From the IMG/VR virus record IMGVR_UViG_3300026290_000001: a stretch of DNA of 64,000 nucleotides, one strand, 5' to 3'. Positions within the stretch are counted from its first letter, which is position 1; each line of letters begins with the position of its first letter. Below are positions 14,362 to 62,554 of the stretch, one piece after another. A program made the position numbers and the translations under genes. The notes beneath the pieces are model-generated. The model was given only the letters and a program-made list of their open reading frames with translations, ran no database searches and was not told the DNA's origin. This DNA comes from a virus.

Positions 14362-14375
14362 AAAATCATTTTTAA

Positions 14376-14397
14376 GAATCCCAATATATAGGGATTT
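14376..14397 (+). repeat. recombination-site-like core, copy B (gaatcccaatatatagggattt)
   Basis: Imperfect palindrome about 60 bp downstream of the XerD-like recombinase stop; direct repeat of copy A. Confidence 0.5.
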
Positions 14398-14456
14398 CTA
14401 AACCCGAAAATTTGAACCAAATTAAAGATTTGTTATGATACAAAATAAAAACATAA

Positions 14457-15461: not shown

Positions 15462-15729
15462 AGAATACCTCCTTTTATTTAGTTGTTACTGAAGGTTCAT
15501 AGTCTACTGCGAAGTAACTTCTTAATACACATTTGCGAAGTCAGAAAACTTTTTAACCAATATCAAACAACCCCGACAATTTCTCTAACTTTTTCCCTAT
15601 ACATATTAGGCACAAAATCAATTATAATTCGCCCACTTTCTACTGCATATACCCACATTCCTAATATAGCTTCACTCATATCATTCATCTCCTTTTAGAT
15701 TAAACAATTCGGTTCTTAACATATCGATT

Positions 15730-15960
15730 TCAGCCATCATCAAAGTGAGTAGAAGTGCTATTCCTTCTGCATCTTCGTTGAAAGCCAACTTCGATATAGT
15801 CATTCTTGTTGAACACTTGCTCATCATATTCCCAACCACTAAACCCCTTCATGGCGTCAATATCTTCTTCCTCAATTCGCACTATATTCGTCCGAACATA
15901 GACTGTATCAGCATTCACTTCAATGGGCTTAACTGTTTCCTGTGTCCCTCTTATTCTCAC
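15730..15960 (-). CDS. hypothetical protein (GTG start)
   Basis: Small ORF just downstream of the tail-fibre gene. Confidence 0.25.
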   Translation of the reverse strand: MRIRGTQETVKPIEVNADTVYVRTNIVRIEEEDIDAMKGFSGWEYDEQVFNKNDYIEVGFQRRCRRNSTSTHFDDG

Positions 15961-16035
15961 GCTTTATCACCTCTTTATAGTATTTTCCTTGATAGGCTTC
16001 TATTCGACCCATTCGACCAATTACCACTGTTATTA

Positions 16036-33000: not shown

Positions 33001-36000
33001 AGTAGCAAAATCACTTAATGCTTGTTGTTGAGTTTCTATATCTTCGGGTTGTAAAGCAAGTGATTTAGCAAATTCGGAAACAACTAATTTGGCAGAATCA
33101 GACATTTCCTTACCATTAGATTCTAAAGTTTTAATGGTTTCTTGCGCTTCGTATTCTAAATATTTTTGTTTGTTTTTAGAAAGATTATATATTTCTTCTT
33201 GTTGTCTTTGATATATATCTTTCCAATCTTCTAATTTTCTGAGGTTATACCATTCAGTTCCTTTATTATTATCAATCATTAATTGATATTCTTCTATACG
33301 TTTTTCTGCGGTGTCTCTGAGGTTAATTGCTTTTTTAATTTCTTTATTAGTTTGTTTATCTGATGCTTTAACTTTAAATTCTAATAATTCCTGTTCTTTT
33401 TTTAATTCTTCATCTAAAGCCAAAATTCTTAGTTTAATTACTTCTATAGAATCAGAATAAGCTTCTCCTTCAAGATTAATACCAGTAGCAGATACACCAT
33501 ATTTATCAACAAGTTCTTTTTGAATTTCTAATAATCGTTTCTTTTCTTCGGTAGTTGCGGTAAGATTTTTCTCTTTATCTTTAAGAGTTTCATATTCAGA
33601 AGTTAATTCTTTTAACCCCTCTTTTTGTTGTTTTAAATTTTGTATTTGATTTTGACTTGTTTCTATTTGTTTTTGTTGTTCTTCTCTATGTTTTTTAGTA
33701 GCATTAGTGAGTCCATAAATAGCAACCATTGCAGTTGTTGCAACAACTGCCAATAATCCTAATGGATTTGTTGCCATCGTTGCTTTTAAAAAATTCATTG
33801 CAGCAGTAAGTCCTTGTGTTGTTGTCAATAATGCTAAAAGGGAAATATTGGCAGCATTAGTAGTAGTAATGAATGCGATCATTGCTTTTATACTAGAAGT
33901 AATAGCAGTTCCTTTCCAAATTAAAAAAGCCGTAGTTAAAAGTGCTACAACAACTTCTGCATTTCCAAGAACTTCAACTAAAGTTGTCATAGCAATTACA
34001 AAACCTTTAATTACGTCAGAATTTAATGCTTCTTGCCATTTCCCCATTACTGTGTTTTTGAATTGTGCAGATTTTGCCTCAATTGATTCCATATACTTTT
34101 CGTTTTCAATTAAAGCAGAATTTGTCGAATTTAAGGCAGTAGTTAGAGAGTCCTGCATATCCTTGTAATTAGTCATCATAGCCATTACTATGTTTCCTTG
34201 TCTTTTTCCTGCGACAAGTTCCGACATATTAGCCCTCTGTACGTCTGTAAGTTTTTCCCAAACTAAGGCTAATTCTAACATAATGTCATAGGTGGATTTA
34301 AAGGTATTTTCATCTTTGCGAATTTGAATACCAATATTTTTAAATGATTCTTCAAGTTTAGGAAGATATTCTAAAACATCTTCACCATCTTCGGATACAC
34401 CTCTAAGTCTCATTGAAATTGTTTTGAGGGCTGTTCCTACGGTTGCTGGGTCTTGTACCACTGCGTTAGCAGCAGTTATCAATGCAACTGCTTCTTCCAT
34501 TGTATTGCCAGCAGAATATAATGAAGCAGCAGATCTACGCATAGCTTCACCAATACCTGCACTTGAAATTGCAAAATTATTTCCAACTTCATTATAAATA
34601 TCTACAATTTTCTGTATATTTCTACCTTCTTCATCTACTGCAACACCAAAACCTTTTACTGCTGAAATAATTGCTAGACTAGCTTCTTCTACTCCAATAT
34701 CACCTACATTAGAATATAATAATGCTTGTTTTGCTAATTGAGCAGATTGTTCAAGGGAATAACCCAAACGGGCAAACTCTGTCGTACTATTAATAACTTC
34801 CACACTAGTTTTTGCCAAATTTCGACCTATAGCATTTGCCTCAAGTGAAAATTTATTTAATGTTTCTCTAGTTTCGTCAGTAACTTTATTCAAATTTGTG
34901 AGAGCAGTATCTATGTCGATGATACTTTGAATACCATTTTTTACTGCTGTTATTGTTTTGATTATTACATCACCGATGAGCAACCAACTAGCGAATTTCT
35001 TGCCCGCTTCAAGTAAACTTTGTCCAAAAAGTCCAGTATATTTATTAGCATCTTGAATTTCTTTCTTATAAATACTTGTGGTAGTAGAAATTTCTCTAAG
35101 TTTAGAATTGGCTTCTGCCATATTCTTACTGAAATTTTTATTAGTTGGATCAAAACCACGTATTTGAGATTCAAGAGTATTTAAAGCACTTAAATTATCA
35201 CCAACAATAAACTTTCCATCTACACCTCTCATGCCCCTGATTCTATTTAATAAATCTTGTTGAGCAAGAGATTGTTTATGTATTTCACTTGTTAACTTTT
35301 GCTGTTGAATAATATCTTTATCAATATTTTTTGCTTTTATTGTACCAACATTCCGTAATGTTTGTTCTCTAATTTTTTCAAGTTGAATTAATTTTTCAGC
35401 TTCTATTCCTTCTATTTTGGTTTTTTCACCAATGTCAATTTTTCTTCTAATAATATTATTATATTGACCTTGATGATAGGTTATTTGTTTAGTTAATTCT
35501 TTTGCCTGTTCTGTATCTTTATTTCCTAAACTATGATAATCTTGTCTTAATTTATTTAATTGTGTTAAATGCTGTTTGGCTTCATTAAAATTTTTATTTT
35601 GTGTATTTTTAATAGTTTCTAAATTAGTTTTTTCAAGATTATCATAATAATCTGCCATTTTAACCAGTTCATCTGGTTTCTTTGTCATATCACCTACAGT
35701 TTCTTTAACTCTCTGTGACCAATATTTGGACTGTTCTTTATTTAATTTTTCTAACTCTGTACGTTGTTTTTTATAATTAATAGTAGTTTCTGTTACTTTT
35801 TTATATACTTCGTCTGTTCCTGCTTTTAAATGTTCAATTTGTTTTACACTCTCACCATTTGCTTTTGTCCACTCTTTAGTTCTTTCAGTAATTTTTGCTT
35901 CAGCATTTTCAATTTGTACATATTTTTCTTTATACTTGTCTAAACCCTTACTATCAACATCAATTTTTATTTTAGGATTAACTCGTTGTTCAATATCTTT

Positions 36001-36075
36001 TTTTACTTTATTTAGTTCTGATTCTGATGCTCTATCTAATAACGTTTTTATTCGGATTACAATATCATCTGCCAC
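30031..36075 (-). CDS. tail tape measure protein
   Basis: 2014 aa, extensive coiled-coil, central hydrophobic block, position between tail genes and baseplate; C-terminus carries a copper-amine-oxidase-N-terminal-like segment (YLSIREVAEALGHQVEWDEKKRQIRI). Confidence 0.8.
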   Translation of the reverse strand: MADDIVIRIKTLLDRASESELNKVKKDIEQRVNPKIKIDVDSKGLDKYKEKYVQIENAEAKITERTKEWTKANGESVKQIEHLKAGTDEVYKKVTETTINYKKQRTELEKLNKEQSKYWSQRVKETVGDMTKKPDELVKMADYYDNLEKTNLETIKNTQNKNFNEAKQHLTQLNKLRQDYHSLGNKDTEQAKELTKQITYHQGQYNNIIRRKIDIGEKTKIEGIEAEKLIQLEKIREQTLRNVGTIKAKNIDKDIIQQQKLTSEIHKQSLAQQDLLNRIRGMRGVDGKFIVGDNLSALNTLESQIRGFDPTNKNFSKNMAEANSKLREISTTTSIYKKEIQDANKYTGLFGQSLLEAGKKFASWLLIGDVIIKTITAVKNGIQSIIDIDTALTNLNKVTDETRETLNKFSLEANAIGRNLAKTSVEVINSTTEFARLGYSLEQSAQLAKQALLYSNVGDIGVEEASLAIISAVKGFGVAVDEEGRNIQKIVDIYNEVGNNFAISSAGIGEAMRRSAASLYSAGNTMEEAVALITAANAVVQDPATVGTALKTISMRLRGVSEDGEDVLEYLPKLEESFKNIGIQIRKDENTFKSTYDIMLELALVWEKLTDVQRANMSELVAGKRQGNIVMAMMTNYKDMQDSLTTALNSTNSALIENEKYMESIEAKSAQFKNTVMGKWQEALNSDVIKGFVIAMTTLVEVLGNAEVVVALLTTAFLIWKGTAITSSIKAMIAFITTTNAANISLLALLTTTQGLTAAMNFLKATMATNPLGLLAVVATTAMVAIYGLTNATKKHREEQQKQIETSQNQIQNLKQQKEGLKELTSEYETLKDKEKNLTATTEEKKRLLEIQKELVDKYGVSATGINLEGEAYSDSIEVIKLRILALDEELKKEQELLEFKVKASDKQTNKEIKKAINLRDTAEKRIEEYQLMIDNNKGTEWYNLRKLEDWKDIYQRQQEEIYNLSKNKQKYLEYEAQETIKTLESNGKEMSDSAKLVVSEFAKSLALQPEDIETQQQALSDFATKVANSDLDSLIEQYNKLTSAINSGDDSKKNRDGLSKTSKEITNLINTLTKGNPDLKEFAINFASLYPSTIDSKNAINTLNQYEKALSDFQTTYKDNVSKIKDLKGFLDELSDKGLTQSSIEKIISDYQDYIPLLEDESKLRQQLVKDTEDYQNAIYDAFIKTKEQDINFYNSVKNNHAELFNHLSKLYGNNVTQWANLAQAREAIELQLISKLGSEWAKYFDAFNAGTLLVNPSSMGDFRRIESGSALAVDSKTNQMLKDYAEFQKATRDMASKFKNLNVSSSLDRYGSSSKSSKSFTKTFEVWKEALEAINREIETFKDQLDDVTSFEQKTEIYDQMILLLQKKQNLLLDINNTFDSSLKQAEQNLRSYIGKGLSESDFNKIMSGSTDTIEVDIKNEKIAKAIEDFKKLKDSAEGLKKEIQGIDDEIRDLSFAEFKINLSIEDIKLSDLTQEKENLRNEMSLLEKGSAEYIALLERENQINIESVNILRNKIALVQQELASDRYNADQKQELINTLKQLKQEYINLQFSIKQQLASIADEIISIYKNIYEKQKQVALDAIDEQMKAEEKRHKQATDNLDDELKQFEDYINARIKALDREENEHDYNRELEKKQKAILETQKNIDVLSLDDSFEAKAKKAELIKQLAEQEDEINEYQHDHSIDLRKENLKDQLDAYKKDIDAKKKAEDTKLNLEKDRLDRIKRETEKHYDDLINDEQKFAQIRSDIINGNIDKVKSAFAEFKTFVNGNLEFIGNSISANLITKMEQALALLESANSANMSIPSLESTNPSSNTSGRQPMAVLDSGSFELVNNRAIMQSRLLASLLGASADWEGYGQNQTIIIGGKRFKPAKNVDGTTYLSIREVAEALGHQVEWDEKKRQIRIYHEGGIVGDKSFGFVDKFNKFFNTSANEHIIKALTNEILIPPKNIERYLIPNMQKLIANATPQLQFAGGGNVTYNMNVHIDKVENTEKGVDGFFKRINNGMSKLGK

Positions 36076-45327: not shown

Positions 45328-46080
45328 TTATTTAATGTTGATAAAATTGTCAACAGGTTTACCTTCAGGTTGTAAAAGAATATCCAATTCAATACCCATT
45401 GATTCTTCGATATAATTCTTTATTTTAATAGAATCCAATTCACCACTTTTAATCATTTTTGCCGCTTGTTCGACCACTGAATTCTTATATCCACTAGGTA
45501 ATTTATCAAACTTTTTCTTAAATGAATTAAAATCAAGTCTTAAAATATCAGATACATTATTCAATCCAAGAATTTCTTCATAATGTTTGAAAATGTTTGC
45601 ATATTTCAAAATTTCAATTTCATCATCTTCTATTACTCTAATCCAAGGCTCTCGTATAAATCTTGAGTCAGTATTTTTAAGATCAATAAATTCACCAAGT
45701 TCTATATTATTTGTATCTCCAGGGTTTTCCCAAACAATTTTATAACCAATTTTACGTTTGGATTTATAAATCAATCTACCACTGGATATATTTTTTAAGC
45801 AAATCATACGATTAAGATCTGGTTTCCAAGGTTCTTCTTTTGGTTGGATATTTTTTTTAGATGTTTGAGAAGGTTTAGATTCAAGTTGGGAAGTATCGGT
45901 ATTCAATTCTAAACTTTTTTTAATTCCTTCTACCTGTTCATCATCTAGTTTAGTCATGTGACTTTTTACTTCATATCCTAAATCTTGTGCTGTTTCAATA
46001 ATCTTTTTATTCTCAATATCTAGTTCCTTTGCCAATTCAAATACTTTCATATTAAAATTTACTCCTCTCATTCTTTGCAA
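45328..46080 (-). CDS. hypothetical protein with Rho-N/SAP-like N-terminal motif
   Basis: N-terminus MKVFELAKELDIENKKIIETAQDLG. Confidence 0.3.
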   Translation of the reverse strand: MQRMRGVNFNMKVFELAKELDIENKKIIETAQDLGYEVKSHMTKLDDEQVEGIKKSLELNTDTSQLESKPSQTSKKNIQPKEEPWKPDLNRMICLKNISSGRLIYKSKRKIGYKIVWENPGDTNNIELGEFIDLKNTDSRFIREPWIRVIEDDEIEILKYANIFKHYEEILGLNNVSDILRLDFNSFKKKFDKLPSGYKNSVVEQAAKMIKSGELDSIKIKNYIEESMGIELDILLQPEGKPVDNFINIK

Positions 46081-46086
46081 TTAAAA

Positions 46087-46105
46087 AGAGGGGATTAACC
46101 CCTCT
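46087..46105 (-). terminator. rho-independent terminator downstream of the capsid gene
   Basis: Perfect 7-bp GC-rich stem agagggg / cccctct, 5-nt loop, followed by a T-run on the - strand. Confidence 0.55.
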
Positions 46106-46146
46106 AAATAATTACTATAAAATTATATTGATAATTTATAATTTAA

Positions 46147-47145
46147 TTAGTCAGATATTTGATATCTGCCATAAAGGTCAGTAATTACAATACCAGTACC
46201 GTACCGAGTAGCTGCAAAGTAATCTTGGGTCAAATCTTGGTTGGCAAGTGCATCACCACTGATAATTCTCATTTCACCTTCGGTTACAAATTTTACAGGT
46301 TTTGCATCAACGGATACTATATAAAGATCACTTTCAGAAAGTTTGAAATTATATGTACCAACGGTGTGAACCTGTTTGATTCTCATCATAGGAGTACCAT
46401 TAAAGTTACCATAATAACCCATTTTGTACATATCATCTTTTGCAGCATCAGCTATAATAGCAGTAGTTACTTTCCGTAGTGCTTTTCTAGTTCCTGCAAT
46501 CATGGCAGATTTGCCAGTGGCGGCTTCAACGTGTTCAATTACATCAAGTAAATCTTCTTCATCAAAAGAACCATTGTCGGTGAATCCAGCAGGTAAACCA
46601 GAGAAAGCACCAGTGAAAGCGGTGTAAATATCATCGTTAATTTTCAGTTTGAAAGCCTTATCTAATGCTTCAAGCATTTCGTTAAAGTCTACACGTCCGG
46701 CGAGTAAACGAGAAAGATGTTCGTATATTTTGATGCCTTTCCAAGAGGTGGTGATAGAAACATTAGTTCCAACATCTAAACGCTGTCTACGTAGAGATTG
46801 AGTTCCATCGGCAATTTCTGAAATTACCAACATGGTGCGGTCTGGCGCATAGAAACTATTCTGATCACCAAGGGCAAGGTTCTTATATTCCACAAAATTT
46901 TCAAAGAAATTATCATCAGGAAGTCCTTCAAGGACAGTGTTTTGAAGAATCTCTTCTAATATTTCAAACATTGCTACGCCATTTCTACGGAATGATTTAT
47001 AATCCAATTTGGTAGAACCACCATTGAGTTCTATAAAATGTTGGCGCAATGCCTCTGTTGCATCGGATTTACTAAATTTATCATGTGAAAATTTATTTTT
47101 ATAAATATCTTTCGCTAATTTTACCAAAGTTTTATTATCTTCCAT
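46147..47145 (-). CDS. major capsid protein (putative)
   Basis: 332 aa, position after portal/scaffold region, followed by a strong terminator. Confidence 0.5.
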   Translation of the reverse strand: MEDNKTLVKLAKDIYKNKFSHDKFSKSDATEALRQHFIELNGGSTKLDYKSFRRNGVAMFEILEEILQNTVLEGLPDDNFFENFVEYKNLALGDQNSFYAPDRTMLVISEIADGTQSLRRQRLDVGTNVSITTSWKGIKIYEHLSRLLAGRVDFNEMLEALDKAFKLKINDDIYTAFTGAFSGLPAGFTDNGSFDEEDLLDVIEHVEAATGKSAMIAGTRKALRKVTTAIIADAAKDDMYKMGYYGNFNGTPMMRIKQVHTVGTYNFKLSESDLYIVSVDAKPVKFVTEGEMRIISGDALANQDLTQDYFAATRYGTGIVITDLYGRYQISD

Positions 47146-47182
47146 TTAATTTATTCCTCCTTTATTTATATTAATAGATTAA

Positions 47183-47713
47183 TTATCTAACACTAATCAT
47201 CTCTACCACATTAAGATACTTCGAACCATTGTAGATTTCTCTTGCAATGATTTTTCCATAGAAAACTTCACTCTTAGCAATGTTGGCTACTTCTGCCCAC
47301 TTAACACCTGTGGCGTCAGGAGCAACATAGGAATTAACTGCGGGGATGCCACTACCACTGCTAATCGGAGTAATGCAATCATCGCTGATACTAAAAGTGT
47401 CACCAACTTCAAGAGGTATTAGAGTAATATTCGCACCTGCGGCATTTTGAAACTTGTCTAATGCCTGACCAGATTTCGTTGATTCATCATAGATGATTTC
47501 TGGACTGGCTACAAGGTAACAATTAGGAGTAGTTTCACCCCCAGGTGCCACACACTTCCAGAGTTCTCTTTCTCCCGTAATTAGGGAATGCAATTTTACG
47601 ATACATCCATTGTCAATAGCAGTAGGATCAGCACCTACATAGTACCGTCCACTCTTGATATTACCTGCTTTAGTAGCCTTGATTGCGTCTGTTCTTACGA
47701 TTCCGTATGCCAT
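47183..47713 (-). CDS. hypothetical head protein (scaffold or decoration candidate)
   Basis: Immediately upstream of the putative capsid gene. Confidence 0.3.
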   Translation of the reverse strand: MAYGIVRTDAIKATKAGNIKSGRYYVGADPTAIDNGCIVKLHSLITGERELWKCVAPGGETTPNCYLVASPEIIYDESTKSGQALDKFQNAAGANITLIPLEVGDTFSISDDCITPISSGSGIPAVNSYVAPDATGVKWAEVANIAKSEVFYGKIIAREIYNGSKYLNVVEMISVR

Positions 47714-47729
47714 ATTATAAATTCCTCCT

Positions 47730-48710
47730 TTAAATTTTTAGTTCATTTTTTAAAATTTCCTCAATATTATCAAATTCCCAATAGGGAATACGAAGCAAAA
47801 TTATATTATGCTTTTTACAATATTCATTTTTTAGTTCATCATGAATTTGTAAAGTTTCAAACTCCTTCTTGGTCATCATACCTTTAACCCATTCATAATG
47901 TTGTTTCCCGTCATATTCAATCAACATTCTTAATTGGGTTTTTTCTTTGTCCCAAAATACAGGAACATCAAATTTAAGTAAACCTCCTCCAACGCCCTTT
48001 AAATCATCAAAAGTATATTGGGTGTGATGTGGAATATCATATTTTGTAAGTAAAATATCTAATTGTTTCTCTCCTTTAGATTCTGCACACTGGGAACAAC
48101 CTCTATTATTGCAACTTCTACTGAATATTTTTGCTTTCCATTCATACCCACATTCTAAACATTTCCACCAAGCGTACTTATTACAACCATAAGTTATATC
48201 ATAGGGAGTTAAATCGCCATTTTTGGTAGGATGCCACTCTAAGGTTAGGTCTGGTCTTTTAGTAGCGAGACAGTTTGATAATGTTACTTGCGCCCCTACG
48301 CAAACACCACATCCATTACCACTATAAATACCACTCCAATCAGCTAGAAAAATTTCTCCACAATCTTCTTTTAAACATCTCCATTGCATTTTAGTTTTTG
48401 CATTGCTATAATTTGTACTTATTAACTCAAAAGGTTTATTATTTAATACACACCAATTTTTCATATTTTGAATTGTGTATGGATTAGAAACATCAAATTT
48501 CATTGGATTGCTTCTTAAAAATACCGATATACTTTGAAAATAATAATAACTATCCATATCTTTAAATGTTAATTTTGAAAGCGCATTCTTATATTTCAAA
48601 TCAATCAAAATATAACCTTTTGCTAATAAAGTTTCCTTCACTAACTCATAAGTCCATTTAGTACCACTTGTATAACCCATAAATTCCTCCTCATCCTTGT
48701 TTACAAACAA
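47730..48710 (-). CDS. homing-endonuclease-like protein (zinc ribbon + PD-(D/E)xK/Vsr-like nuclease domain)
   Basis: Cys-rich region with EWHPTKNGDLTP zinc-ribbon motif, C-terminal ...LIEYDGKQHYEW...LLRIPYWE nuclease-like motif; intrusive position between capsid-assembly genes. Confidence 0.45.
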   Translation of the reverse strand: MFVNKDEEEFMGYTSGTKWTYELVKETLLAKGYILIDLKYKNALSKLTFKDMDSYYYFQSISVFLRSNPMKFDVSNPYTIQNMKNWCVLNNKPFELISTNYSNAKTKMQWRCLKEDCGEIFLADWSGIYSGNGCGVCVGAQVTLSNCLATKRPDLTLEWHPTKNGDLTPYDITYGCNKYAWWKCLECGYEWKAKIFSRSCNNRGCSQCAESKGEKQLDILLTKYDIPHHTQYTFDDLKGVGGGLLKFDVPVFWDKEKTQLRMLIEYDGKQHYEWVKGMMTKKEFETLQIHDELKNEYCKKHNIILLRIPYWEFDNIEEILKNELKI

Positions 48711-50525: not shown

Positions 50526-52052
50526 TTATGTCCTATTATCAGGATTATTACTATCAACCACCTGACCTGCTTCTGTTGATCCTTCTATATTATCCCCCTT
50601 ACTTTTTGCCCCACCTTTATTAGAATCCTGATAAGCTGATTTAAGTGGCACAAATTTATCCGTAATTTTCATCACATCATTTTCAAGTAGTATCGAATTC
50701 ATCACATCAGAAGGAGATAGTCCCAAAGACGCACAATAATGACGTTTTACTGGAAGTCCAACTGTACTTGCTTCTCTATACATAGTTGCTAATTCATTTT
50801 TGTTATATCTTGTAATGTCCAAGAAAGTAACCTTGAAATTTATTTTTTTATTTTCATCTTTCAATCTGCGATTTATCCATCTCTCAAATTGCCGTAATAA
50901 TTGAAATACAGTTGCTTCATCACTCATAATGGCTTTGTTCAAGGCGGCACCAGATGCTTTATCACTATTAAAAATAAGTTTTGGTACACCAGCCGAATTA
51001 TAAATTGAATTCTCTGCCAAACTTACTCCATCTAACTCTCTTTCACTTTTATTAAGTTTAATGGATTCTACGGAATCAAAAGGGGATAATGCGATTCCGA
51101 TTTGATTAGGTAAATTACTACCCATAAGCTGATAGTACTCTTTGGCAATATCTAAACTTAAGGCGAAATTATTGGCAGAATCATCACTTTTGTTATATGG
51201 AATCTTAGCAATAAGTAGTAAATAGTTTTCTAATTCAGTTTTAGACATCTGAATATCCTTATACTCATAAAGTGAATAAATATCTTCAAATATTCCCGCC
51301 AAAGGTGGTATAGAATAATCGGTGTTAGATATTTTAATGCAAATAGTTTTACTAGAATCTAACTCTTGCCATTTCATATTCTTTCTATCTTTTTTATAAA
51401 TTTCATATTTTTCTCTAAATTCAGGAGCATACCTTTCTAAATCTTTTGGATAGGTGTCAAAATAATTGAACGAAAAACTGTAATTGTAGCACCCATCCTC
51501 AATACTACTTATAGCACAATAATCAGGGTTTAATAAATCAAAAAAGAAAGAATTTTTAGTTGAATAAATATACCCATACGCAACATCATCTATAAATGCC
51601 CTATATGTTAATTTTGAAAATTCATGTTTAATATTCATTGTTTCTAATAAATTTAATGTTGTTATATATTTTTTTTCTATTGTTGTAATTAAATCTTTAG
51701 TAATTTCATAATCAGTTTGGTTATATATATCTACCACATAATCAAAAGTTAACATTGTGGAAAAATAATCAATTAATCTTCTATAATGAGAAGAACTATC
51801 TAACAAAAACCTTGATAAATCTCTTAGTTTCTTTTCATATTTATGAGGATTTGCTAACCATGCAATTACATCATTTTTTGAAAATGTTTTATTAAAAGTA
51901 GAATTTGGTTGAGTATTATTTAAATCTTTTTTTATGTATTTTGCAAACTCAGCAAAATGAAGCATCATACGTTGAAACTGCATATCTTCTTTACTTAATG
52001 GTACATCGGTTTTAATAATTTCTTCTTTAATATCTGTTTTAGTATCTGTCAA
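50526..52052 (-). CDS. portal protein (putative)
   Basis: 508 aa directly downstream of large terminase. Confidence 0.55.
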   Translation of the reverse strand: MTDTKTDIKEEIIKTDVPLSKEDMQFQRMMLHFAEFAKYIKKDLNNTQPNSTFNKTFSKNDVIAWLANPHKYEKKLRDLSRFLLDSSSHYRRLIDYFSTMLTFDYVVDIYNQTDYEITKDLITTIEKKYITTLNLLETMNIKHEFSKLTYRAFIDDVAYGYIYSTKNSFFFDLLNPDYCAISSIEDGCYNYSFSFNYFDTYPKDLERYAPEFREKYEIYKKDRKNMKWQELDSSKTICIKISNTDYSIPPLAGIFEDIYSLYEYKDIQMSKTELENYLLLIAKIPYNKSDDSANNFALSLDIAKEYYQLMGSNLPNQIGIALSPFDSVESIKLNKSERELDGVSLAENSIYNSAGVPKLIFNSDKASGAALNKAIMSDEATVFQLLRQFERWINRRLKDENKKINFKVTFLDITRYNKNELATMYREASTVGLPVKRHYCASLGLSPSDVMNSILLENDVMKITDKFVPLKSAYQDSNKGGAKSKGDNIEGSTEAGQVVDSNNPDNRT

Positions 52053-52139: not shown

Positions 52140-54014
52140 TTATCGTTTGCGAATTTGGGGTTTTTTAAATTGAAATAATTCTTGGACATTAATATCGTTG
52201 TTGGTTTTTCTTTGTGTAATATGTTTTCTTCTTAATTGTTGCAAATACCATGCTAACATGGCAATGCAATATGCACGGTCATCGTGCATGATTCTTTCTT
52301 TATCAGGTGGAAGATTATATCTATATCCACCATTAGGACTATCAAATCTATAAATATTTACCAATTCTTCTTTTGCCAAATCAATATTTTTTAATGCTAA
52401 TTCTTCATCAAAAGATAATTTATGTATTTTTTGACTAGATTGAATATCTTTCTTTTTATTTTTATTATCATCTTCATATTCTACTTCCTGATTCTCAAAT
52501 AAAGAAATATATCCCTTCATATCATACTCTTCTGTAAATGATATTAAATCTAATCCCAACATTTCAACTAATGCATCAAACATTTCATTTTTATATTTTT
52601 TAGGACTCATTAATTTTAATTTATCTACTGCATTTGGAAATTTAGTAATATAATCAGCAGATTCTATTTTATCAATCAACCCTTTATGTGGATTGCCTTG
52701 TTGATCAATCCAATCCTCCATAAGATAGTCTGCAATATTTACGCCAGCACCGCCAGCACCCGAATCAATGAGAATTGCTTCAATATTTTCATAATCAGCA
52801 CATTGTTTTCCATTGTAATCTAAAATCATTTGTTTTAAATATGCAATTTGTTCTGGTGTTCTCATTGGTGTTTTTTTCTTCTTACCAATGTCTACAAAAC
52901 TAACACCATTGCAAATTCTCATTTTATATCCAACTTGTTCATCAAAATAAATTTCACCAACTAAAGATACCGAATTATCATAACTCCTAGCAGGATCATA
53001 TCCTATCACAAACTTACTATTATCAGTGTTATATAAAATAGGAGGTCTAACTTCACTATTTCTAATTATAACTGATCTTTTAATTGCCTGATTTTCTCCG
53101 CCTTCATTAGAAAATTTATTATAATACTCTCTTAAGGCTTTAATTTTATTCTTTTTCATAGCATCTTCTACAACTTCTTTTTTCAACAAAGATGGGTAAA
53201 CCTTACCATTATAAGTAGAATTAAATACAATTTCTACATTTATATCTGCAACAAAATAATTTTTATTACCTAAAAACATCTCTTTGGCATAATCTCTATA
53301 TACCTTGTAAAAATATGTGTCCGTACCAGATGCTGAAGATGCAAATATTGCTTGGTTAGGAAACTCTTTAGGTAATAAATCTAAGTTTATATCTCCACCT
53401 AATTTAAAGTTACTATCTTGTGTAATAAAGGGTAGGGAAGTAATAAACAATTCTTCTGGTGCAAAACCACTTTCATCATAAATATTTAAATTACTTCTTT
53501 TACTTCTATTATGATCAAAAGCACCATTTAGTGAATTTAAAGCACTTCCATTATAAAGTTTATATTGAAATGAAGAAGGATTATGTGTAAATCCATCAGT
53601 ATCAGACCTACTTTTAACTGTTTCATTATAAAAAACATCTGTTAATCCAGTAAAAGAAGCAATTTCTCTTTTTGCTATTTTTTCTATTTTCATAAATGCT
53701 TCTTGTGCTTGACTACCAACTCCACTCATTACATATGCTTGAAAATTAGATATTAAATTAGTCTTTGCCATTGCAAAAGGTGCAATCATTGTAGTTTTAC
53801 CACTACCCCTACTCTGACACCATACACAAAAAGGAGTTGTCCAACTCATCATAAAAACATACTTTTGACTATCTAAAAAATCAATTCCATAGAAACGTTC
53901 ACAAAAACGAATGGGGTATTGCCTCCCCCATTGTACAATTTGTACTAAACGCATATATCCTTCTAATTTTCTTTGAGACATTTCTTGTTTTGTTTTTTGA
54001 ATAATATATTCCAT
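52140..54014 (-). CDS. terminase large subunit
   Basis: Walker A QSRGSGKTT, Walker B-like NIYDESG, C-terminal nuclease motifs IGYDPARS and LIDSGAGG. Confidence 0.8.
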   Translation of the reverse strand: MEYIIQKTKQEMSQRKLEGYMRLVQIVQWGRQYPIRFCERFYGIDFLDSQKYVFMMSWTTPFCVWCQSRGSGKTTMIAPFAMAKTNLISNFQAYVMSGVGSQAQEAFMKIEKIAKREIASFTGLTDVFYNETVKSRSDTDGFTHNPSSFQYKLYNGSALNSLNGAFDHNRSKRSNLNIYDESGFAPEELFITSLPFITQDSNFKLGGDINLDLLPKEFPNQAIFASSASGTDTYFYKVYRDYAKEMFLGNKNYFVADINVEIVFNSTYNGKVYPSLLKKEVVEDAMKKNKIKALREYYNKFSNEGGENQAIKRSVIIRNSEVRPPILYNTDNSKFVIGYDPARSYDNSVSLVGEIYFDEQVGYKMRICNGVSFVDIGKKKKTPMRTPEQIAYLKQMILDYNGKQCADYENIEAILIDSGAGGAGVNIADYLMEDWIDQQGNPHKGLIDKIESADYITKFPNAVDKLKLMSPKKYKNEMFDALVEMLGLDLISFTEEYDMKGYISLFENQEVEYEDDNKNKKKDIQSSQKIHKLSFDEELALKNIDLAKEELVNIYRFDSPNGGYRYNLPPDKERIMHDDRAYCIAMLAWYLQQLRRKHITQRKTNNDINVQELFQFKKPQIRKR

Positions 54015-55602: not shown

Positions 55603-56571
55603 TTAAATTGGTATCAACATCAACTTAGTTTTATCATAAATTAATTCACCATTGTCATTCTGACACACATATATAAATCCTTGCTGTTGTGGTACAGTTA
55701 ATAATCCATCGGTATAATCCATTGCTTCTGTTTCACAACAACAACCTTGTTCATACATATATATATCACCTTGAATATAAGAACCAAGTTTATGAGTGTG
55801 GGCTAATATAATTGAATCAAAATCCCTATCAATCCTAAAAAAATAATCAATAGCTTTTTCAGTAGTTTTTAACATTCCATTTGAAGATGTTCTAGGATGT
55901 GCAAACCATGTTTTCCCTATTTTACATTTCCAATCTTTTGTATATTCAATATCAATATCAAAAACATTTTTAATAGGTTCATACCAAATTTCTGTTTTTT
56001 GCCTTTTATCATAATTTTTAAAACCATTATCAATAATCATATCTAAAGAAGTATCAGGCATTAATTGAAGTAAATCATCGTGTATTTTATCACTAAAATA
56101 TTTTTGTAATCTCAATTCATGATTCCCATAATTTAAAATCACTTTCTTTGGTTTTAAATATTCAATTAAATCAATTATGTATTGCCTAGTTTCAATCATT
56201 TCTTCAACAAAATTAACTCTATATTTTTTACTAAATTTACTAATTGATTGACAATCAGATATGTCTCCATTTAACTGTAAAACGTCAACTTTATTTATAT
56301 ATTCTCTAAAAGTTTTTACTGGAAGTTGAAATGGAACGTGAGTGTCAGATATTGATAAAATTCTAGTAGCAACACCATTGCTTTTAAGATAGTTGTCATA
56401 CTCAATTAAACCATAAGCAGTTTTTCTTAAATGATCTGCACTACAATCTAACTTTAATAAATCAACAATTTCTTGCCATTCAATATCATATTTTTCTATA
56501 AGTTTTAATTTGCATAATCTTAATTTCCATTCAAAACCCGATTCTGAATCTTTCTTATTTAAAAATTCCAT
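55603..56571 (-). CDS. calcineurin-like metallophosphoesterase
   Basis: Motifs SISDTHVPF, NGDISD, LNYGNHE, ILAHTHKLG. Confidence 0.6.
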   Translation of the reverse strand: MEFLNKKDSESGFEWKLRLCKLKLIEKYDIEWQEIVDLLKLDCSADHLRKTAYGLIEYDNYLKSNGVATRILSISDTHVPFQLPVKTFREYINKVDVLQLNGDISDCQSISKFSKKYRVNFVEEMIETRQYIIDLIEYLKPKKVILNYGNHELRLQKYFSDKIHDDLLQLMPDTSLDMIIDNGFKNYDKRQKTEIWYEPIKNVFDIDIEYTKDWKCKIGKTWFAHPRTSSNGMLKTTEKAIDYFFRIDRDFDSIILAHTHKLGSYIQGDIYMYEQGCCCETEAMDYTDGLLTVPQQQGFIYVCQNDNGELIYDKTKLMLIPI

Positions 56572-56599: not shown

Positions 56600-56675
56600 T
56601 GGAGCCGAGTATAGGATTTGAACCCATAATCTGTTGTTTACAAGACAACTGCCTTATCAATTTGGCTAACCCGGC
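56600..56675 (-). tRNA. tRNA-Thr (anticodon UGU), CCA encoded
   Basis: 76-nt cloverleaf folded by hand: 7-bp acceptor stem, T-arm with TTCAAAT loop, anticodon stem GTTGT/ACAAC with loop CTTGTAA. Confidence 0.7.
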
Positions 56676-56877
56676 AAATTAGAAAGTTGGTATCTGCCTA
56701 ACTTAATAGGTCAAATCCCACTTTCTTTGTTATTAATATTAATTCAGTCGGCGTAAAGCCTTTATAATAAAATTCAAACTTTAGTAGATTGGCACTCGCT
56801 ATATCTCTTCAAAGAGCATAATTTTAATAGTTTGATAGCTGTCCATTCTACCCTCAAAGTTTAAATTTATTAATATA

Positions 56878-57264
56878 TTATTCTTTTTCAATCAAAATCT
56901 TTTTCTTTTCAGGTCTATCTAAAATTAAAGTAATAAAAGTTAAACCATTTTTACTTTTAACTTTTATTTTTTCAATCTCATTCATAATACTATCAGCAAT
57001 GGGTAATTCAAAATATGTGTCATAAGTATATCCTTCAACCTCAGTTGAACCACTTACTTTCAGGCCAAAGTTTGTTTCTTCAACCTTTACATCACTAGGA
57101 TCAATACCAATCGTTTTACAAACACACATATAGGTTTTATCGTCTTTTTTGCTCCAGTATGTAGGAAGCATGTCCTTCACAATTGAATTAAAAACTAATT
57201 TTCTAGGCTTTCCAAAACCTAAAGTAAATAAATCCTCAAAAACATCATCAAAAATCCTACTCAT
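56878..57264 (-). CDS. small heat-shock protein (Hsp20/alpha-crystallin-like)
   Basis: About 128 aa; segment GIDPSDVKVEETNFGLKVSGSTE resembles the alpha-crystallin domain core. Confidence 0.4.
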   Translation of the reverse strand: MSRIFDDVFEDLFTLGFGKPRKLVFNSIVKDMLPTYWSKKDDKTYMCVCKTIGIDPSDVKVEETNFGLKVSGSTEVEGYTYDTYFELPIADSIMNEIEKIKVKSKNGLTFITLILDRPEKKKILIEKE

Positions 57265-57361
57265 AAAAATTCCTCCTTAAAATAATTTTAAAAAATATTG
57301 ATAAAGTGGAATACCACATTTATCCTAAAAAATAAATAATAAAATAATTTTAATTTTTATA

Positions 57362-57724: not shown

Positions 57725-58546
57725 TTAAGGATTTTCTATTACTTTAGCAGGTCTATATTTATCTTTATAATTATGCCATGCTTTTCTCTGCCATTCTAAT
57801 TGTTTTTCCCTCCAACAACTCCTACAAAATTTTCTTCTATTAGATGTTGCTTTTATTAATTTTCCACATTCATTACAATTAATAATTTTTGGATTACCAT
57901 TATACAAATCAAAGTAATATCCAATATTATCAAAGGTAGTTATTTCAAAAACTACTATTCCATTTTCCTTGATATTATTCATAAATATAAGATGAATTTT
58001 CCCCTTCATTCTAACATCAACCAATCCTAAAATCTCTAATTCATTAATTATGGCATTTATTTTATACTCATTATTAGATATTTTAGACACTTCTAATATC
58101 TCATTATATGTATTTTGATTACCACTTATATAATTATATTTTAAAACATTTCCGTATTTTAATTTATGTATTTCTTTATATATCTTCATTTCTACTAACA
58201 AAACAAACAGAATTTTTTTATAATTATACTCTATATCTAAATTATTAATGTATTCAATTTCTTCGTTTGTTATAGGAATACTATCAATAATTATTAAAGG
58301 GTTATCTTTTCTACCTCCTTTTTTGAGTGCAGTATTAATTTGTTTGAAATATAAAACATCATTGAAATTAACTATATACTTCTTGCAAAATTCATATAAT
58401 TTTTCTTTTCGTTGTTTAGGTTTTATGCCAAGTTTTTTCCAATATTTAACTAACAAAACCAATTCATAATTATGACGTTCAGTTAAAAATCCATGTTGTT
58501 CAATTTGTTTTGCATATTCTTCTTCATTGTATTTTTCTTGAATCAA
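57725..58546 (-). CDS. hypothetical protein with C-terminal zinc finger
   Basis: CNECGK...CRSC motif. Confidence 0.3.
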   Translation of the reverse strand: MIQEKYNEEEYAKQIEQHGFLTERHNYELVLLVKYWKKLGIKPKQRKEKLYEFCKKYIVNFNDVLYFKQINTALKKGGRKDNPLIIIDSIPITNEEIEYINNLDIEYNYKKILFVLLVEMKIYKEIHKLKYGNVLKYNYISGNQNTYNEILEVSKISNNEYKINAIINELEILGLVDVRMKGKIHLIFMNNIKENGIVVFEITTFDNIGYYFDLYNGNPKIINCNECGKLIKATSNRRKFCRSCWREKQLEWQRKAWHNYKDKYRPAKVIENP

Positions 58547-61347
58547 ATAATCACTTCTTCCAACTTGTACTTTTTATTCAAGTAAACAATACCCCCTTCT
58601 TTATTAGGCATGGGAAAAAATATAGATTCTTTTGTGTTTGATTTAATATTTGAAAAAATATACTTACCAAAGGAATTCCATAAAATATCTTTGTTTGAAC
58701 TTTTATATTCACAATAAAATATTTCAACTAAATAATTAGTTAATTCATATGCGTATGAACATATTTCAAACATTCTACTTTTAAAGTCATCATAAATATT
58801 ATTTACAATACGATCAGATTCTTCATCAAATTGCTCTTTGTTGGCATTTTGATTAATACCCATAGTATTCAAGTCTTTTAATTCTTTCATAAATTTTTTA
58901 TACTCATTTAATACTTTCTGATAGGTTTCTTGATTTTTAGGAATATCATTTTTCATATATAATTTATACAAATCACCTATTTTACTTGTTTTTAATTTAC
59001 TTTTAATATCAAAATCAACATTTTCAATATGTTTACACAATAAATTCATTACACTGTCACTATCAATTACTGGTAAAAATCTATAATATGCATCCACAAA
59101 AGACTGTTCTTTTTCATTACAATTTTCCTTAATTAATAGTTCATTTAATGTTAATCCAAATTTTTGCTGACTAGACAAATCGTTACTTTTGACATATTTT
59201 TTATATTTATTATAGGTATTTTTATAAAGATGAATAAAAAAATATGGATGTTTATCCAATAATATTTTATTTAAAAATTCCTTTTCTTTTTTAACTTTTT
59301 CATCATCATCTTTATAAATTTTTTGCCTTTCAATCCAAATCTTAGGAATGCCCTTAACTTTTTTACCTATTTTTGCTTTATCAATTTGAGCAGATTGAAG
59401 TTTCGTACACATTTTTAATCTATTTATCAATGTTTGATATTCCAAACTTTCTTTATTAAAAAGAGGGAGTAAGGCATAAGCACTTGTACTTTTATTTGTT
59501 ATAGAGCCTATAGTGGAACCAAAGGCGAAAAGATCAGCTTTATATAAATCTTCTTCTGTAAATACCATAGATATAGATTTAGGTGCATCATAAACCACTG
59601 GCAACTCATCTTGAAATATTGAATTTAATATTGTTTGATCAGAAGTAGTTGCAATAATATCAAAATCCCAATCACTTCCAGCCCAATTAAGAGTTTCATA
59701 ACCATGTATATTTACTATTACTCCACCATCATCACAATACTTATACCATTTATTTAATTTATCATGATTAATTAAATTTAATTTCAAATGTTCTGATTTA
59801 TAAGTAAGTGGTGCTCTCATTGAATCTACGATACAAACATTTTTTTTATTCCAATAATTACAATAATACTCTTTTTCTTTAAGCAATCCAGTAACCTTTT
59901 GCCCGCAAATATGTTGCATCATAGCATAGGGATCACTTACTAAAACCTGAAAATTTCCATCTAAAATAATTTCACCAAGACAACCTCTTTTTATGATATT
60001 GTTAGTATATTTATAAACTTTATCTCTGATATATTTATCATTTTTTAATTCATGATTAACTATCAAACTTTTTAACCAATAATTATTACTATACTTTAAA
60101 AAATATTGAATACTTTCTTGAGTTATATTTTCTCCTAATAAAAATAATAACGTATAATATATATTATCAAAATTGACCCCAGTAACCCAATCAACAAAAG
60201 GAGTACAAATCTTCTTAATATCTTTTTGGTTTAAATCCAAAGTCTGTAAAAATTGATAATTCATTTTTAATATATCATTAGGTTTTTTAGGAGAAGTTAA
60301 ACTAACACCCCATTTTAAATCATTCATCTCGCAATTATGTATATATTCTTCTAAACTACCAAACGCATTCCAAAGTTTAAATTGACTTTCCGATACAACC
60401 ACATCGATATCCCTTAAATCAACCTGTATTGGATTATTATTGTCTTTGTATATAGTATTTATTATATAATTACCATGATTTTCATTTTCACAATATTCAT
60501 CTATATCAAATACGCAGAGCATCCCTTTCAGAAAATTCTGCCTGACACAAAATTGACCAGGAATATAATCTAATCCTAATTCTTCTGCCCATTCTTTAGC
60601 TTTACTTGGTTTAATCAACCCTTGACCATCAAACCTATTAAAACTCAACTCTACTTCTTTAATTACAATATCATCATCTTTATTTTCTTCTGTTTCAGTT
60701 ACAAAATTAACATTAACTTTTTGCTTAATTTCATAATCAGGCACTACACAAAATTTAGGCGTACTTACTATTTTTGTAGATGAACCCGACAATCCTTTAT
60801 ATGCATTGTATTTAGAAGGGCATAGGGGTATATTTTTATCTCTATTATTATCTAAAATTTCATTAAGTTGATTTAAAATTTTCTCGTTGCAAAATACCAC
60901 TGTTGAAACTCTGGATTGACTGGCAGATGATGATAATCTAAAATACCGTTCAGAATTTAATAATAATCCATTTTTAAATAAATAATTATAATGTGAGTTA
61001 TGTTCCATTACTATAGTTATGTACTCAGGAATAAAAAGCATATCTAAAATATTATTTTGTAATTCTATTATTCTACTTGAGTTTTCCTTTGAATATATTT
61101 GTTTTTTTAACCTATCTCTTTCTTTATACCATTGTTCAAGTTGTATATAATTAATTTCTTTACCAGTTATTTTTCTAATACTTCTAAGAATTTGATTGTC
61201 TGATAAAGCAATTAACTCACCATTTTGTTTAGCTTGTTGTGGAGTTAATTGTATATCATACCCATATTCTTTAAGCCTAGATGATTTAAATTTCATAGTA
61301 TATAATTGTCTATTTATCAATATTTTTTGCCTCCAATAAATCTTCAT
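58543..61347 (-). CDS. large protein of unknown function (934 aa) with acidic motifs VFDIDE and SDWDFD
   Basis: Long uninterrupted ORF; no P-loop; acidic clusters could be metal-binding catalytic motifs (primase/polymerase-like), unassigned. Confidence 0.4.
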   Translation of the reverse strand: MKIYWRQKILINRQLYTMKFKSSRLKEYGYDIQLTPQQAKQNGELIALSDNQILRSIRKITGKEINYIQLEQWYKERDRLKKQIYSKENSSRIIELQNNILDMLFIPEYITIVMEHNSHYNYLFKNGLLLNSERYFRLSSSASQSRVSTVVFCNEKILNQLNEILDNNRDKNIPLCPSKYNAYKGLSGSSTKIVSTPKFCVVPDYEIKQKVNVNFVTETEENKDDDIVIKEVELSFNRFDGQGLIKPSKAKEWAEELGLDYIPGQFCVRQNFLKGMLCVFDIDEYCENENHGNYIINTIYKDNNNPIQVDLRDIDVVVSESQFKLWNAFGSLEEYIHNCEMNDLKWGVSLTSPKKPNDILKMNYQFLQTLDLNQKDIKKICTPFVDWVTGVNFDNIYYTLLFLLGENITQESIQYFLKYSNNYWLKSLIVNHELKNDKYIRDKVYKYTNNIIKRGCLGEIILDGNFQVLVSDPYAMMQHICGQKVTGLLKEKEYYCNYWNKKNVCIVDSMRAPLTYKSEHLKLNLINHDKLNKWYKYCDDGGVIVNIHGYETLNWAGSDWDFDIIATTSDQTILNSIFQDELPVVYDAPKSISMVFTEEDLYKADLFAFGSTIGSITNKSTSAYALLPLFNKESLEYQTLINRLKMCTKLQSAQIDKAKIGKKVKGIPKIWIERQKIYKDDDEKVKKEKEFLNKILLDKHPYFFIHLYKNTYNKYKKYVKSNDLSSQQKFGLTLNELLIKENCNEKEQSFVDAYYRFLPVIDSDSVMNLLCKHIENVDFDIKSKLKTSKIGDLYKLYMKNDIPKNQETYQKVLNEYKKFMKELKDLNTMGINQNANKEQFDEESDRIVNNIYDDFKSRMFEICSYAYELTNYLVEIFYCEYKSSNKDILWNSFGKYIFSNIKSNTKESIFFPMPNKEGGIVYLNKKYKLEEVII

Positions 61348-62554
61348 ACTCTAAAAAATTAAGTCCTAATTCTTTAAAATCATTCATTACATTATATTTA
61401 TAATTACGTACTTTATAATGTGAATACAATAAAGAACCACTTCTACTTTCTCGAATTCGTTTTCTAGGCATCATTAAAATATATCTATTTGCACCTTTTG
61501 ATTCAACAAATTTTAATTCCTTTAATATCAATTTTGCAAGATTAAGAATATTATCAGGATAATTATTAACCATTTTAAATCTAATATTATCAAGTTTATG
61601 ATCATCTTCTAAAAATAATAGATAAATAGGTTTATTATTAAATCGAGATAGTTCTTGCTTTAATTTATTTAATTCTAATTTTCTTTCTTCTTTATGTTTT
61701 TGGAATTGTTTAAAATATGATTCTTCATTTTTTCTAATAGTTTCTTGTCTTTTTAACTCTTTTTCCTTCTTTTTATCAGAATATTGTTTATTTTTATTAA
61801 ATACTTCTTCTGAAAGTAAAAAATTATTATTTTTAAAAATGAGTCCATTAATATCAATAATATATTTCTTAATATCTTTATCAAAAGATATTAATTTATT
61901 ATGCAACAAATGTCTTTTCTCGTTATCATAATATTTACCATTTGCAATTTTAAATCTAAAATCACTTAAGCCCAATATATTCAAATGAGTATAATTAAAC
62001 ATAAATAATTTGTACATTGGATCAAAATAAAAACCTGTAAATTGTTCTATTGCTTTATCTCTAAACCTATTTCCTATTTCTGCTTTTTCAATATATTTAT
62101 CCGTCCCTAAAATCCAAATATCATTTATATCTGCTAATTTATATAATTCATGTCTTTCTAAACATTCTGTTGCTATTGGACTACATTGAAATTCGAAAAC
62201 AAATCTTTTATCACCTATTTCAAAATACAAATCAGGTCTTTGCCTAGTTTCTGGTATATATGATTCTAACTTTATATTTGATAAACCATCTTGCTTTAAC
62301 AACCAATTATAAAGCATTATTTTACCTTTAATATGTTCGTCTGTTTCAGGTTCATAATAAATACCTTCACAATTAATATTTTTTTCTTTATGTCTAAAAT
62401 ATGGATAAACTATTTCTCCGTGACAATACTCATAAAAATTACCACAATCGGGACAAAGTAATCTATTTTCTTCAGACCATTTTTTTAGAATAAATTTATC
62501 ATATTTACCATCAAAACAATTAATAATTGTATTACCAATCTTACAAGTTAACAA
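61310..62554 (-). CDS. CoiA-like (competence protein CoiA family) nuclease-like protein
   Basis: N-terminal zinc finger CPDCG...H, then RQRPDLYFEIGDKRFVFEFQCSPIATECLERHELY...WILG matching the CoiA family signature. Confidence 0.5.
   Translation of the reverse strand: MLTCKIGNTIINCFDGKYDKFILKKWSEENRLLCPDCGNFYEYCHGEIVYPYFRHKEKNINCEGIYYEPETDEHIKGKIMLYNWLLKQDGLSNIKLESYIPETRQRPDLYFEIGDKRFVFEFQCSPIATECLERHELYKLADINDIWILGTDKYIEKAEIGNRFRDKAIEQFTGFYFDPMYKLFMFNYTHLNILGLSDFRFKIANGKYYDNEKRHLLHNKLISFDKDIKKYIIDINGLIFKNNNFLLSEEVFNKNKQYSDKKKEKELKRQETIRKNEESYFKQFQKHKEERKLELNKLKQELSRFNNKPIYLLFLEDDHKLDNIRFKMVNNYPDNILNLAKLILKELKFVESKGANRYILMMPRKRIRESRSGSLLYSHYKVRNYKYNVMNDFKELGLNFLEYEDLLEAKNIDK

Follow-up and report, generated by a model that had tools for sequence, protein, structure and literature searches.

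A homologue of the small heat-shock proteins (sHsps) that adopts an alpha-crystallin fold is very probably encoded in the stretch of viral DNA analyzed here, a window of 64,000 nucleotides from the IMG/VR virus record IMGVR_UViG_3300026290_000001. The gene occupies positions 56878..57264 on the minus strand and specifies a protein of 128 residues. The assignment, which draws on sequence profiles and modeled structures, is supported at the level of the family and of the predicted fold, and not by the single sequence. The protein follows the three-part layout of the sHsps: its N-terminal arm is aromatic, its middle part an alpha-crystallin sandwich, and its tail Lys-rich with an I-x-I motif. By analogy with known sHsps it would probably serve as a holdase. 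An annotation made earlier from the letters of the window, referred to below as the sequence-only reading, had described the gene as a phage-encoded Hsp20-like protein, and this description is borne out by orthologues which pass the HSP20 cut-off, and by profile and structure searches which return sHsps.

Assignment to the small heat-shock proteins

Relatives of the window protein were arranged in two alignments, one of 46 close relatives (A1), the other of 114 extended relatives drawn from 176 clusters (A2). The curated cut-off of the Pfam HSP20 family (PF00011), set at 20.8 bits, is exceeded by the orthologues P0063, P0072 and P0073, which are 65, 48 and 44% identical to the window protein, and score 24.9, 30.0 and 25.9 bits, respectively, over nearly the whole model. 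PF00011 is matched by 27 of the 46 close relatives and, at E<=0.001, by 50 of the 114 extended ones. Searched against the PDB, both profiles retrieve sHsps. The four best matches of A1 are all sHsps (E 0.0016-0.018), headed by the chloroplast Hsp21 at E=0.0016; sHsps make up all 25 matches of A2, Hsp21 being again the best at E=1.2e-16. The hhalign comparison of A1 with Hsp21 has a probability of 87% and an E value of 3.8e-6, and extends over 117 columns, N-terminal arm included. An hhalign comparison of the family with Escherichia coli IbpA gave a probability of 7%, with a misalignment near beta6/7, and was not used as evidence. When 1.84 billion representatives were searched exhaustively with a profile, only 176 clusters (formed at 50% identity) were returned at E<=0.001, and the family is therefore small and distinct.

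The models obtained with AlphaFold2 have a mean predicted local distance difference test score (pLDDT) of 84 with A1 as input and of 90.4 with A2 as input. Both begin with a helix and end in a C-terminal tail; between the two are a sandwich of seven strands (residues 35-115) and a short helix (residues 91-94). Across the alpha-crystallin domain, pLDDT values exceed 90. In Foldseek searches of the PDB, sHsps or alpha-crystallins account for 50 of the 50 top matches of model 1, and 49 of the 50 of model 2. In the viral library BFVD the best-ranking entries are sHsps from uncultured Caudovirales, from giant viruses, and from one cyanophage.

The most direct objection to the assignment comes from the window protein searched on its own. 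No Pfam family matches it even at E<=10, the PF00011 cut-off not being reached; it is unmatched in NCBIfam, and its sole match in PHROGs is weak and concerns a family of unknown function, phrog_432 not being reached. In the PDB, phmmer finds sHsps at marginal E values, about 0.2-0.8. The alpha-crystallin-like core segments noticed in the sequence-only reading are accordingly weak in the single sequence (phmmer E about 0.2), and stand out at the level of the family and in the predicted structure. The same reading had proposed an Hsp20 profile search, and had named the lack of any match to alpha-crystallin-domain profiles as the outcome that would speak against it. For the window protein this is, literally, the outcome; it is overridden by the evidence from family and structure.

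A compact sandwich devoid of the beta6 loop, such as the one modeled here, would also suit a co-chaperone domain of the p23/CS type, which belongs to the same superfamily and is monomeric, and the protein would then be no true sHsp. One of the 114 extended relatives matches the Pfam CS domain (3.8e-7), and the second Foldseek search has a p23 chain among its matches, at rank 48. Yet 99 of the 100 top PDB matches in the two Foldseek searches are sHsps, matches to HSP20 outnumber those to CS by 50 to 1 among the extended relatives, and the sHsp-specific NGL and L-P motifs are conserved along with the C-terminal IXI. The window protein itself does not match the CS domain (PF04969) in the Pfam search. 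Moreover, Hsp90, the partner of p23, is not known to be typical of Clostridia. The p23/CS alternative was rejected on the structural matches, the HSP20 matches and the sHsp-specific motifs, and is very improbable.

Reading frame and evolutionary constraint

The reading frame reported earlier at 56878-57264 was recovered on the minus strand, with an ATG start and a TAA stop. A ribosome-binding site, AGGAGG (57272-57277, minus strand), lies 7 nucleotides 5' of the ATG. The same hexamer is found at the identical distance in 13 of 15 orthologous loci (the sequence is TGGAGG in the locus labeled L022, and AGGAGT in L023). Searching 5.8 billion protein clusters, 76 homologues were found at E<=0.01; they are 45-99% identical to the window protein, and nearly all measure 123-135 residues. 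The gene is present in full length in 15 orthologous copies, each from an independent contig.

The ratio of nonsynonymous to synonymous substitution rates (dN/dS) is 0.14 between the window gene and its closest independent orthologue (dS 0.13), has a median of 0.22 across 90 pairs of orthologues, and ranges from 0.07 to 0.2 for relatives at least 58% identical. Fifteen columns are invariant in the alignment of the 46 close relatives. DNA around the gene is AT-rich, with a local GC content of about 0.25, and a chance open reading frame (ORF), or a decaying pseudogene devoid of function, has to be considered. Such a view could invoke the failure of the single sequence to match Pfam or NCBIfam families directly, and the truncated remnant of the gene found in one related contig (see below). 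It is effectively refuted by the invariant columns, the 15 intact loci and the dN/dS values; the strong ribosome-binding site and the confident fold prediction also run counter to it, and its probability is negligible. The ORF is a genuine gene, not a chance frame of an AT-rich genome, looks expressed, and is under purifying selection.

Protein organization

The N-terminal arm (residues 1-36; 57157..57264, minus strand) was delimited by predicted secondary structure and conservation. It opens with a predicted amphipathic helix, IFDDVFEDLF, spanning residues 4 to 13 or 14, followed by a conserved motif, GFGKPR..FNS.VKDMLP.YW. Seven aromatic residues (F, Y or W) fall within positions 1-37, and F17, G18, D31, P34 and W37 are invariant in the 46 close relatives. 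Both the A2 profile and hhalign align the arm with that of Hsp21.

The alpha-crystallin domain (residues 37-116; 56917..57156, minus strand), delimited on the models and the Foldseek alignments, is predicted to consist of seven strands, at residues 35/38-41, 44-50, 60-63/64, 67-76, 79-88, 97-105 and 108-115. Two landmarks are found in all of the 46 close relatives: the L87-P88 pair which follows beta7, and G107, the central residue of the N106-G107-L108 triplet (part of NGLTF) located before beta9, the last strand.

The C-terminal extension (residues 117-128 and stop codon; 56878..56916, minus strand) was defined by its conservation in relatives. Its sequence reads RPEKKK-I-L-I-EKE, where PEKKK is a Lys-rich linker and I123-L124-I125 (nucleotides 56890-56898) the IXI anchoring motif. 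Residues 123 and 125 fit the [IVL]-x-[IVL] pattern in 43 of the 46 close relatives, and in nearly all of the 114 extended ones. K120 and K122 are invariant in the close set.

Genomic context and distribution

The sHsp gene is located between a gene encoding a YonO-type single-subunit RNA polymerase and a YonG/terminase/portal block. The polymerase (934 residues; 58543-61347, minus strand) matches phrog_8308 at 8e-166 and is unmatched in Pfam. Its identity is 55% to a protein of Bacillus phage BUCT082, a phage assigned to Spbetavirus in its record, and 24% to YonO of SPbeta. YonO, a single-subunit RNA polymerase, transcribes as one operon the late genes of SPbeta, which serve structure and lysis (PMC5467207). 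By its YonO-type polymerase, the phage is therefore SPbeta-like; it is uncultured, and most likely infects Clostridia. Profile matches identify the portal (50526-52052), the large subunit of the terminase (52140-54014) and a metallophosphoesterase (55603-56571). Between 11.9 kb and 64 kb every long ORF is on the minus strand, which makes a co-oriented block of 52 kb.

Other features of the window were recorded alongside. Coding strand and GC skew flip at about 11350-11860, genes being on the plus strand before, and on the minus strand after, this point. The GC content rises to 0.34-0.37 at 14000-18000, and to 0.35 at 46000-48000, over a background of 0.24-0.30. An ORF of 2014 residues (30031-36075, minus strand), located where the structural block has its tail genes, presumably encodes a tape-measure or tail protein. 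Upstream of the polymerase gene, and overlapping its start by 38 nucleotides, is an ORF of 414 residues with a CoiA nuclease-like domain (PF06054, 3e-27; 61310-62554, minus strand); a 51% identical homologue resides at the equivalent position in BUCT082. The polymerase homologue of locus L004 has a Pfam RdRP match.

Twelve genes of the window recur at 99-100% identity on a contig of 99.6 kb (IMGVR_UViG_3300009671_000358), where the sHsp gene is identical. The order polymerase, sHsp, YonG-like gene, terminase and portal, all on one strand, is repeated in about 20 loci of uncultured phages or prophages, derived from metagenomes, IMG/VR, three metagenome-assembled genomes (MAGs) of Clostridia/Bacillota, and the isolate Clostridium sp. 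MT-14. The orthologue in the MT-14 prophage (GCA_042436595.1, contig JBHMIY010000003.1, at about 124.9 kb) is 59% identical to the window protein. Genes for HU, PhoH and NlpC/P60 proteins fill the variable space of related loci. One distant relative lies in an array of phage-like character, where genes for RNA ligase, ThyX and DUF551 are found; contigs carrying distant relatives are mostly too short for the context to be read.

As stated in the sequence-only reading, the gene lies beside a tRNA gene. A tRNA-Thr(UGU) (56600-56675, minus strand) is found 202 nucleotides downstream, on the same strand. Of 17 related metagenomic or MAG loci scanned, 12 have tRNA genes, mostly tRNA-Thr(UGU), no more than a few hundred bases from the sHsp gene, which sits in a tRNA island of these phages. 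Trp, Gly, Met and Asn tRNAs were also observed beside sHsp genes, and locus L013 features an array of four tRNAs.

The location in an accessory region, likewise suggested earlier, agrees with the distribution of the gene. The sHsp gene is absent at this place in three cultured phages sharing the backbone, BUCT082, Enterocloster phage PMBT24 and Clostridium phage c-st. In a related contig (IMGVR_UViG_3300038321_000157, 6639-8066; locus L024) only the final 22 codons survive, GLTFITLILNKPEKKKVLIEKE, directly after the stop codon of an ORF of 451 residues with repeated Cys-rich motifs; the gene looks to have been destroyed there by insertion or replacement, possibly by a homing-endonuclease-like element. 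Absent from cultured relatives and reduced to a remnant in L024, the sHsp gene therefore belongs to the accessory genes, open to loss. No match to the window protein, to the close orthologue P0073, or to the distant relatives P0146 and P0189 was found by tblastn in 50,697 deposited phage genomes, and none by megablast of the 12.6-kb neighborhood of the sHsp gene; the cultured phage genomes of INPHARED have no detectable copy.

Flanking non-coding elements

A conserved hairpin, GGATAAATGTGG-TATT-CCACTTTATC, followed by AATAT and a T-rich run, is found 31-61 nucleotides 5' of the sHsp ATG (57295..57325, minus strand). The hairpin is unique in the window, the expectation by chance being 0.02, and its folding energy, taken alone, is unexceptional (z = -1.7). 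It is retained in loci L011, L013, L008 and L007, with the outer stem conserved and the inner stem altered on both sides, that is, covarying; other loci carry different hairpins at the same place. The element could be the terminator of an ORF of 69 residues located upstream, or a regulatory or promoter element of the sHsp gene. Around the sHsp gene, a scan for sigma-70 promoters gave results at chance level, and a scan for intrinsic terminators none.

The 202-nucleotide spacer separating the sHsp and tRNA genes (56676-56877) folds at -50.4 kcal/mol, far better than shuffled sequences (z = -5.3), and includes a likely skipping-rope RNA (Rfam RF02924; 56776-56862, minus strand). The match covers the full model (1-80) with 29.2 bits, below the gathering score of 36.7, and E values from 2e-4 to 3e-5. 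In locus L019 a skipping-rope RNA scores 55.2 bits about 230 nucleotides downstream of the sHsp gene, and the outer stems of the two RNAs differ on both sides. None was found downstream of the gene in L007 and L011, where it was searched.

Proposed function

By analogy with characterized sHsps, the protein would probably act as a general holdase, independent of ATP and produced during infection. The I-L-I motif of one subunit would dock into the beta4/beta8 groove of another, giving rise to oligomers, and the aromatic N-terminal arm, together with exposed grooves, would bind unfolding or unassembled proteins without ATP, clients being eventually passed to the DnaK, ClpB and GroEL systems of the host. 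Production in the course of infection is suggested by the position of the gene between the polymerase and the YonG/terminase/portal block; made at this time, the protein may keep soluble massively produced virion proteins, or stressed proteins of the host. Support of capsid assembly or of host proteins had also been put forward, as a possible role, in the sequence-only reading.

Several features of the protein and of its gene weigh against an ordinary holdase. The beta6 loop is the dimerization element of bacterial, archaeal and plant sHsps. It is missing here, a gap of about 10 residues being present in every alignment to Hsp21, and strands 67-76 and 79-88 are predicted to form in its place a tight hairpin with a two-residue turn. 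G72 and P88 are 16 residues apart in every one of the 46 close relatives, as opposed to 26 in Hsp21; among the 114 extended relatives this distance is 16-18 in 103, and 15-20 in 112. The position of the beta7 Arg (R120 of alphaB-crystallin), equivalence being counted from the L-P motif, is occupied by T83. At this site, five residues before the Pro, T is found in 43 and V in 3 of the 46 close relatives, and Arg in none of the 114 extended ones. Since both the beta6 loop and the beta7 Arg are absent, the basic building block is expected to be assembled differently. Beta7-beta7 pairing, as in animal sHsps, or an unusual dimer might provide the alternative.

N-terminal arms are normally the most variable part of sHsps. 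In this family the mean pairwise identity is 57% in the arm and 60% in the core, with similar dN/dS. Such parity of arm and core is a hint of binding to a specific partner, as opposed to promiscuous client binding. Comparisons between loci add to the same side of the balance. The sHsps are 45-77% identical, often far above the polymerase (24-31%) or the portal (23-50%), and 72-77% identical in loci in which polymerases are 25-31% and portals 24-50% identical. Synonymous sites are saturated, and the high identity is therefore not due to recent transfer; conservation exceeding that of polymerase and portal is unusual for a generic holdase. Nor do regulatory elements help. No CIRCE element was found within 3 mismatches anywhere in the window, and no CtsR box near the sHsp gene, two matches at 22.3 kb and 35.7 kb being at chance level; by those routes, therefore, the gene is not wired into the heat-shock regulon of the host. 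The ORF of 69 residues upstream of the gene was considered as a candidate YonK, which would have put the sHsp gene just within a YonO late operon like that of SPbeta, and rejected, showing no similarity by BLASTP or Pfam; it is no YonK homologue, so membership of the sHsp gene in a late operon driven by the YonO-type polymerase is not supported.

Some of these features would be accounted for if the protein were a dedicated chaperone or assembly factor, engaging one partner, either a virion protein or the phage RNA polymerase, through its N-terminal motif. The arm is conserved like the core. Its residues 21-34, predicted with pLDDT of 94-97 and no regular secondary structure, are suggested by the models to pack against the domain, and a related FNxxVKDMxP motif is retained in distant relatives (A2). 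The excess of conservation over polymerase and portal in many loci, at saturated dS, points in the same direction, as do the fixed position of the gene at the head of the morphogenesis block, and the weak match of two relatives to a PHROG annotated as head protein (E=0.006). On the other hand, cultured phages with homologous terminase, portal and polymerase do without the sHsp, and one lineage has lost it, so that an essential partner in the backbone is unlikely. The IXI tail and the overall architecture are those of ordinary oligomeric sHsps. Furthermore, the identity of the sHsp does not track uniformly that of the portal (75% and 26% in L003, 73% and 84% in L007, 44% and 48% in L022), and module exchange therefore also contributes to the pattern. 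A single-partner role is, on the whole, unlikely.

High conservation amid diverged core genes could also mirror a conserved target in the host. The fold would be reused, in this case, by a host-takeover or counter-defense protein sequestering a conserved host factor involved in stress, sporulation or immunity. That the gene is accessory, losable, and placed in a variable slot among tRNA genes fits this proposal, such traits being typical of host-interaction genes. It is countered by sequence and structure signals which are all those of ordinary sHsps, by the lack of any toxin or partner gene consistently adjacent, and by the lack of positive evidence for a specific host target. Neither the sHsp gene nor its neighbors match a PADLOC defense-related model, and a defense system was rejected on this result and on the missing partner gene. 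A takeover role appears decidedly improbable.

A broader variant joins the structural and the evolutionary peculiarities, and sees in the window protein the founding example of a phage-specific clade of minimal sHsps (the 176 clusters), without beta6 loop and beta7 Arg and with the FNxxVKDMxP arm packed on the domain, which turned into a partner-specific factor for assembly or takeover in Clostridia phages with a YonO polymerase. We regard it as doubtful. If true, it would explain the often higher conservation of the sHsp compared to portal, terminase and RNA polymerase, and if the protein is indeed partner-specific, it would show a promiscuous chaperone fold recruited for a dedicated viral task. 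The general holdase stays the reading favored here. The stripped-down domain with its conserved arm offers a compact natural test case for the elements which oligomerization and client binding require in sHsps.

Relationship to known small heat-shock proteins

Phage sHsps are an already established category, and the window protein is no new kind of system; it stems from another phage lineage than the cyanophage sHsps, and is a member of a subfamily that is compact and loop-less. To our knowledge, phage-encoded sHsps have been experimentally studied only in cyanophages. The present data extend them to large SPbeta-like phages of anaerobic Firmicutes, and correct an annotation gap, as the window protein is missed by Pfam, NCBIfam and PHROGs, and many of its relatives by the thresholds in use.

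The claim of the sequence-only reading that such proteins are uncommon outside cyanophages is overstated. Phage-borne sHsps are likewise represented by phrog_432 (Hsp20 heat shock protein) and by BFVD entries of uncultured Caudovirales labeled IbpA, next to sHsps of giant viruses, and many members of the window family are labeled "HSP20 family molecular chaperone IbpA" in IMG. phrog_432 is matched by 4 of the 46 close and 34 of the 114 extended relatives (best E 2.6e-10), and not by the window protein. HSP20 is also carried by large aquatic phages (PMC12619734).

Among phage proteins, HspSP-ShM2 of the Synechococcus cyanophage S-ShM2 (PDB 7ck4) shares with the window protein a short C-terminal tail with an L/I-x-I/V anchor, and is matched by the window model in Foldseek at E 8e-4 to 3e-3. 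The cyanophage protein assembles into large oligomers, and its protective effect in vitro extends to three model clients (PMC5028025). It is about 10 residues longer over the aligned domain, a difference consistent with the beta6 loop. Cyanophage sHsps bear in beta2-beta3 the signature P-P-[YF]-N-[ILV]-[IV]-x(9)-[EQ] (Maaroufi & Tanguay 2013; PMC3827213). The window protein lacks this signature and contains no Pro-Pro, the matching stretch being L-P-T-Y-W-S-K-K. The carriers differ as well, cyanophage sHsps being encoded by T4-like cyanomyophages, the window protein by an SPbeta-like phage of Clostridia.

Canonical sHsps (PF00011; COG0071, IbpA), such as Hsp21 (PDB 5nms and 7bzw), have the same three-part layout, and share with the window protein NG(V/L) before beta9 and L-P after beta7. 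Hsp21 is the best sequence-profile match of the family. Compared to it, the window protein is about 10 residues shorter at the beta6 loop, has Thr83 in place of the beta7 Arg, and a strongly conserved arm.

The domain of Sulfolobus solfataricus Hsp20.1 (PDB 4rzk) has the highest identity among the structural matches (23-26%, with a root-mean-square deviation of 3.6-4.1 Å), and aligns over beta5-beta7 without a long insertion, the connection being similarly short. The relation in sequence is marginal (E 0.018-0.19). Unlike the window protein, Hsp20.1 is an archaeal cellular protein which measures about 20 kDa and has an N-terminal region of some length; the title of its authors' report, as cited in PMC9133787, speaks of an "unusual dimeric Hsp20.1".

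Animal alpha-crystallins (zebrafish alphaA, 3n3e; human alphaB, 2y22) resemble the window protein in that their domain is compact and has no swapped beta6 loop. Zebrafish alphaA is the top Foldseek match of model 1, and alphaB has a template modeling (TM) score of 0.68, normalized to the target. Identity to the window protein is only 8-13%, and no evolutionary link is implied. The animal proteins keep the Arg (R120 in alphaB) where the window protein has Thr, and the beta6+7 mode of dimerization which they use is hypothesized for the phage protein.

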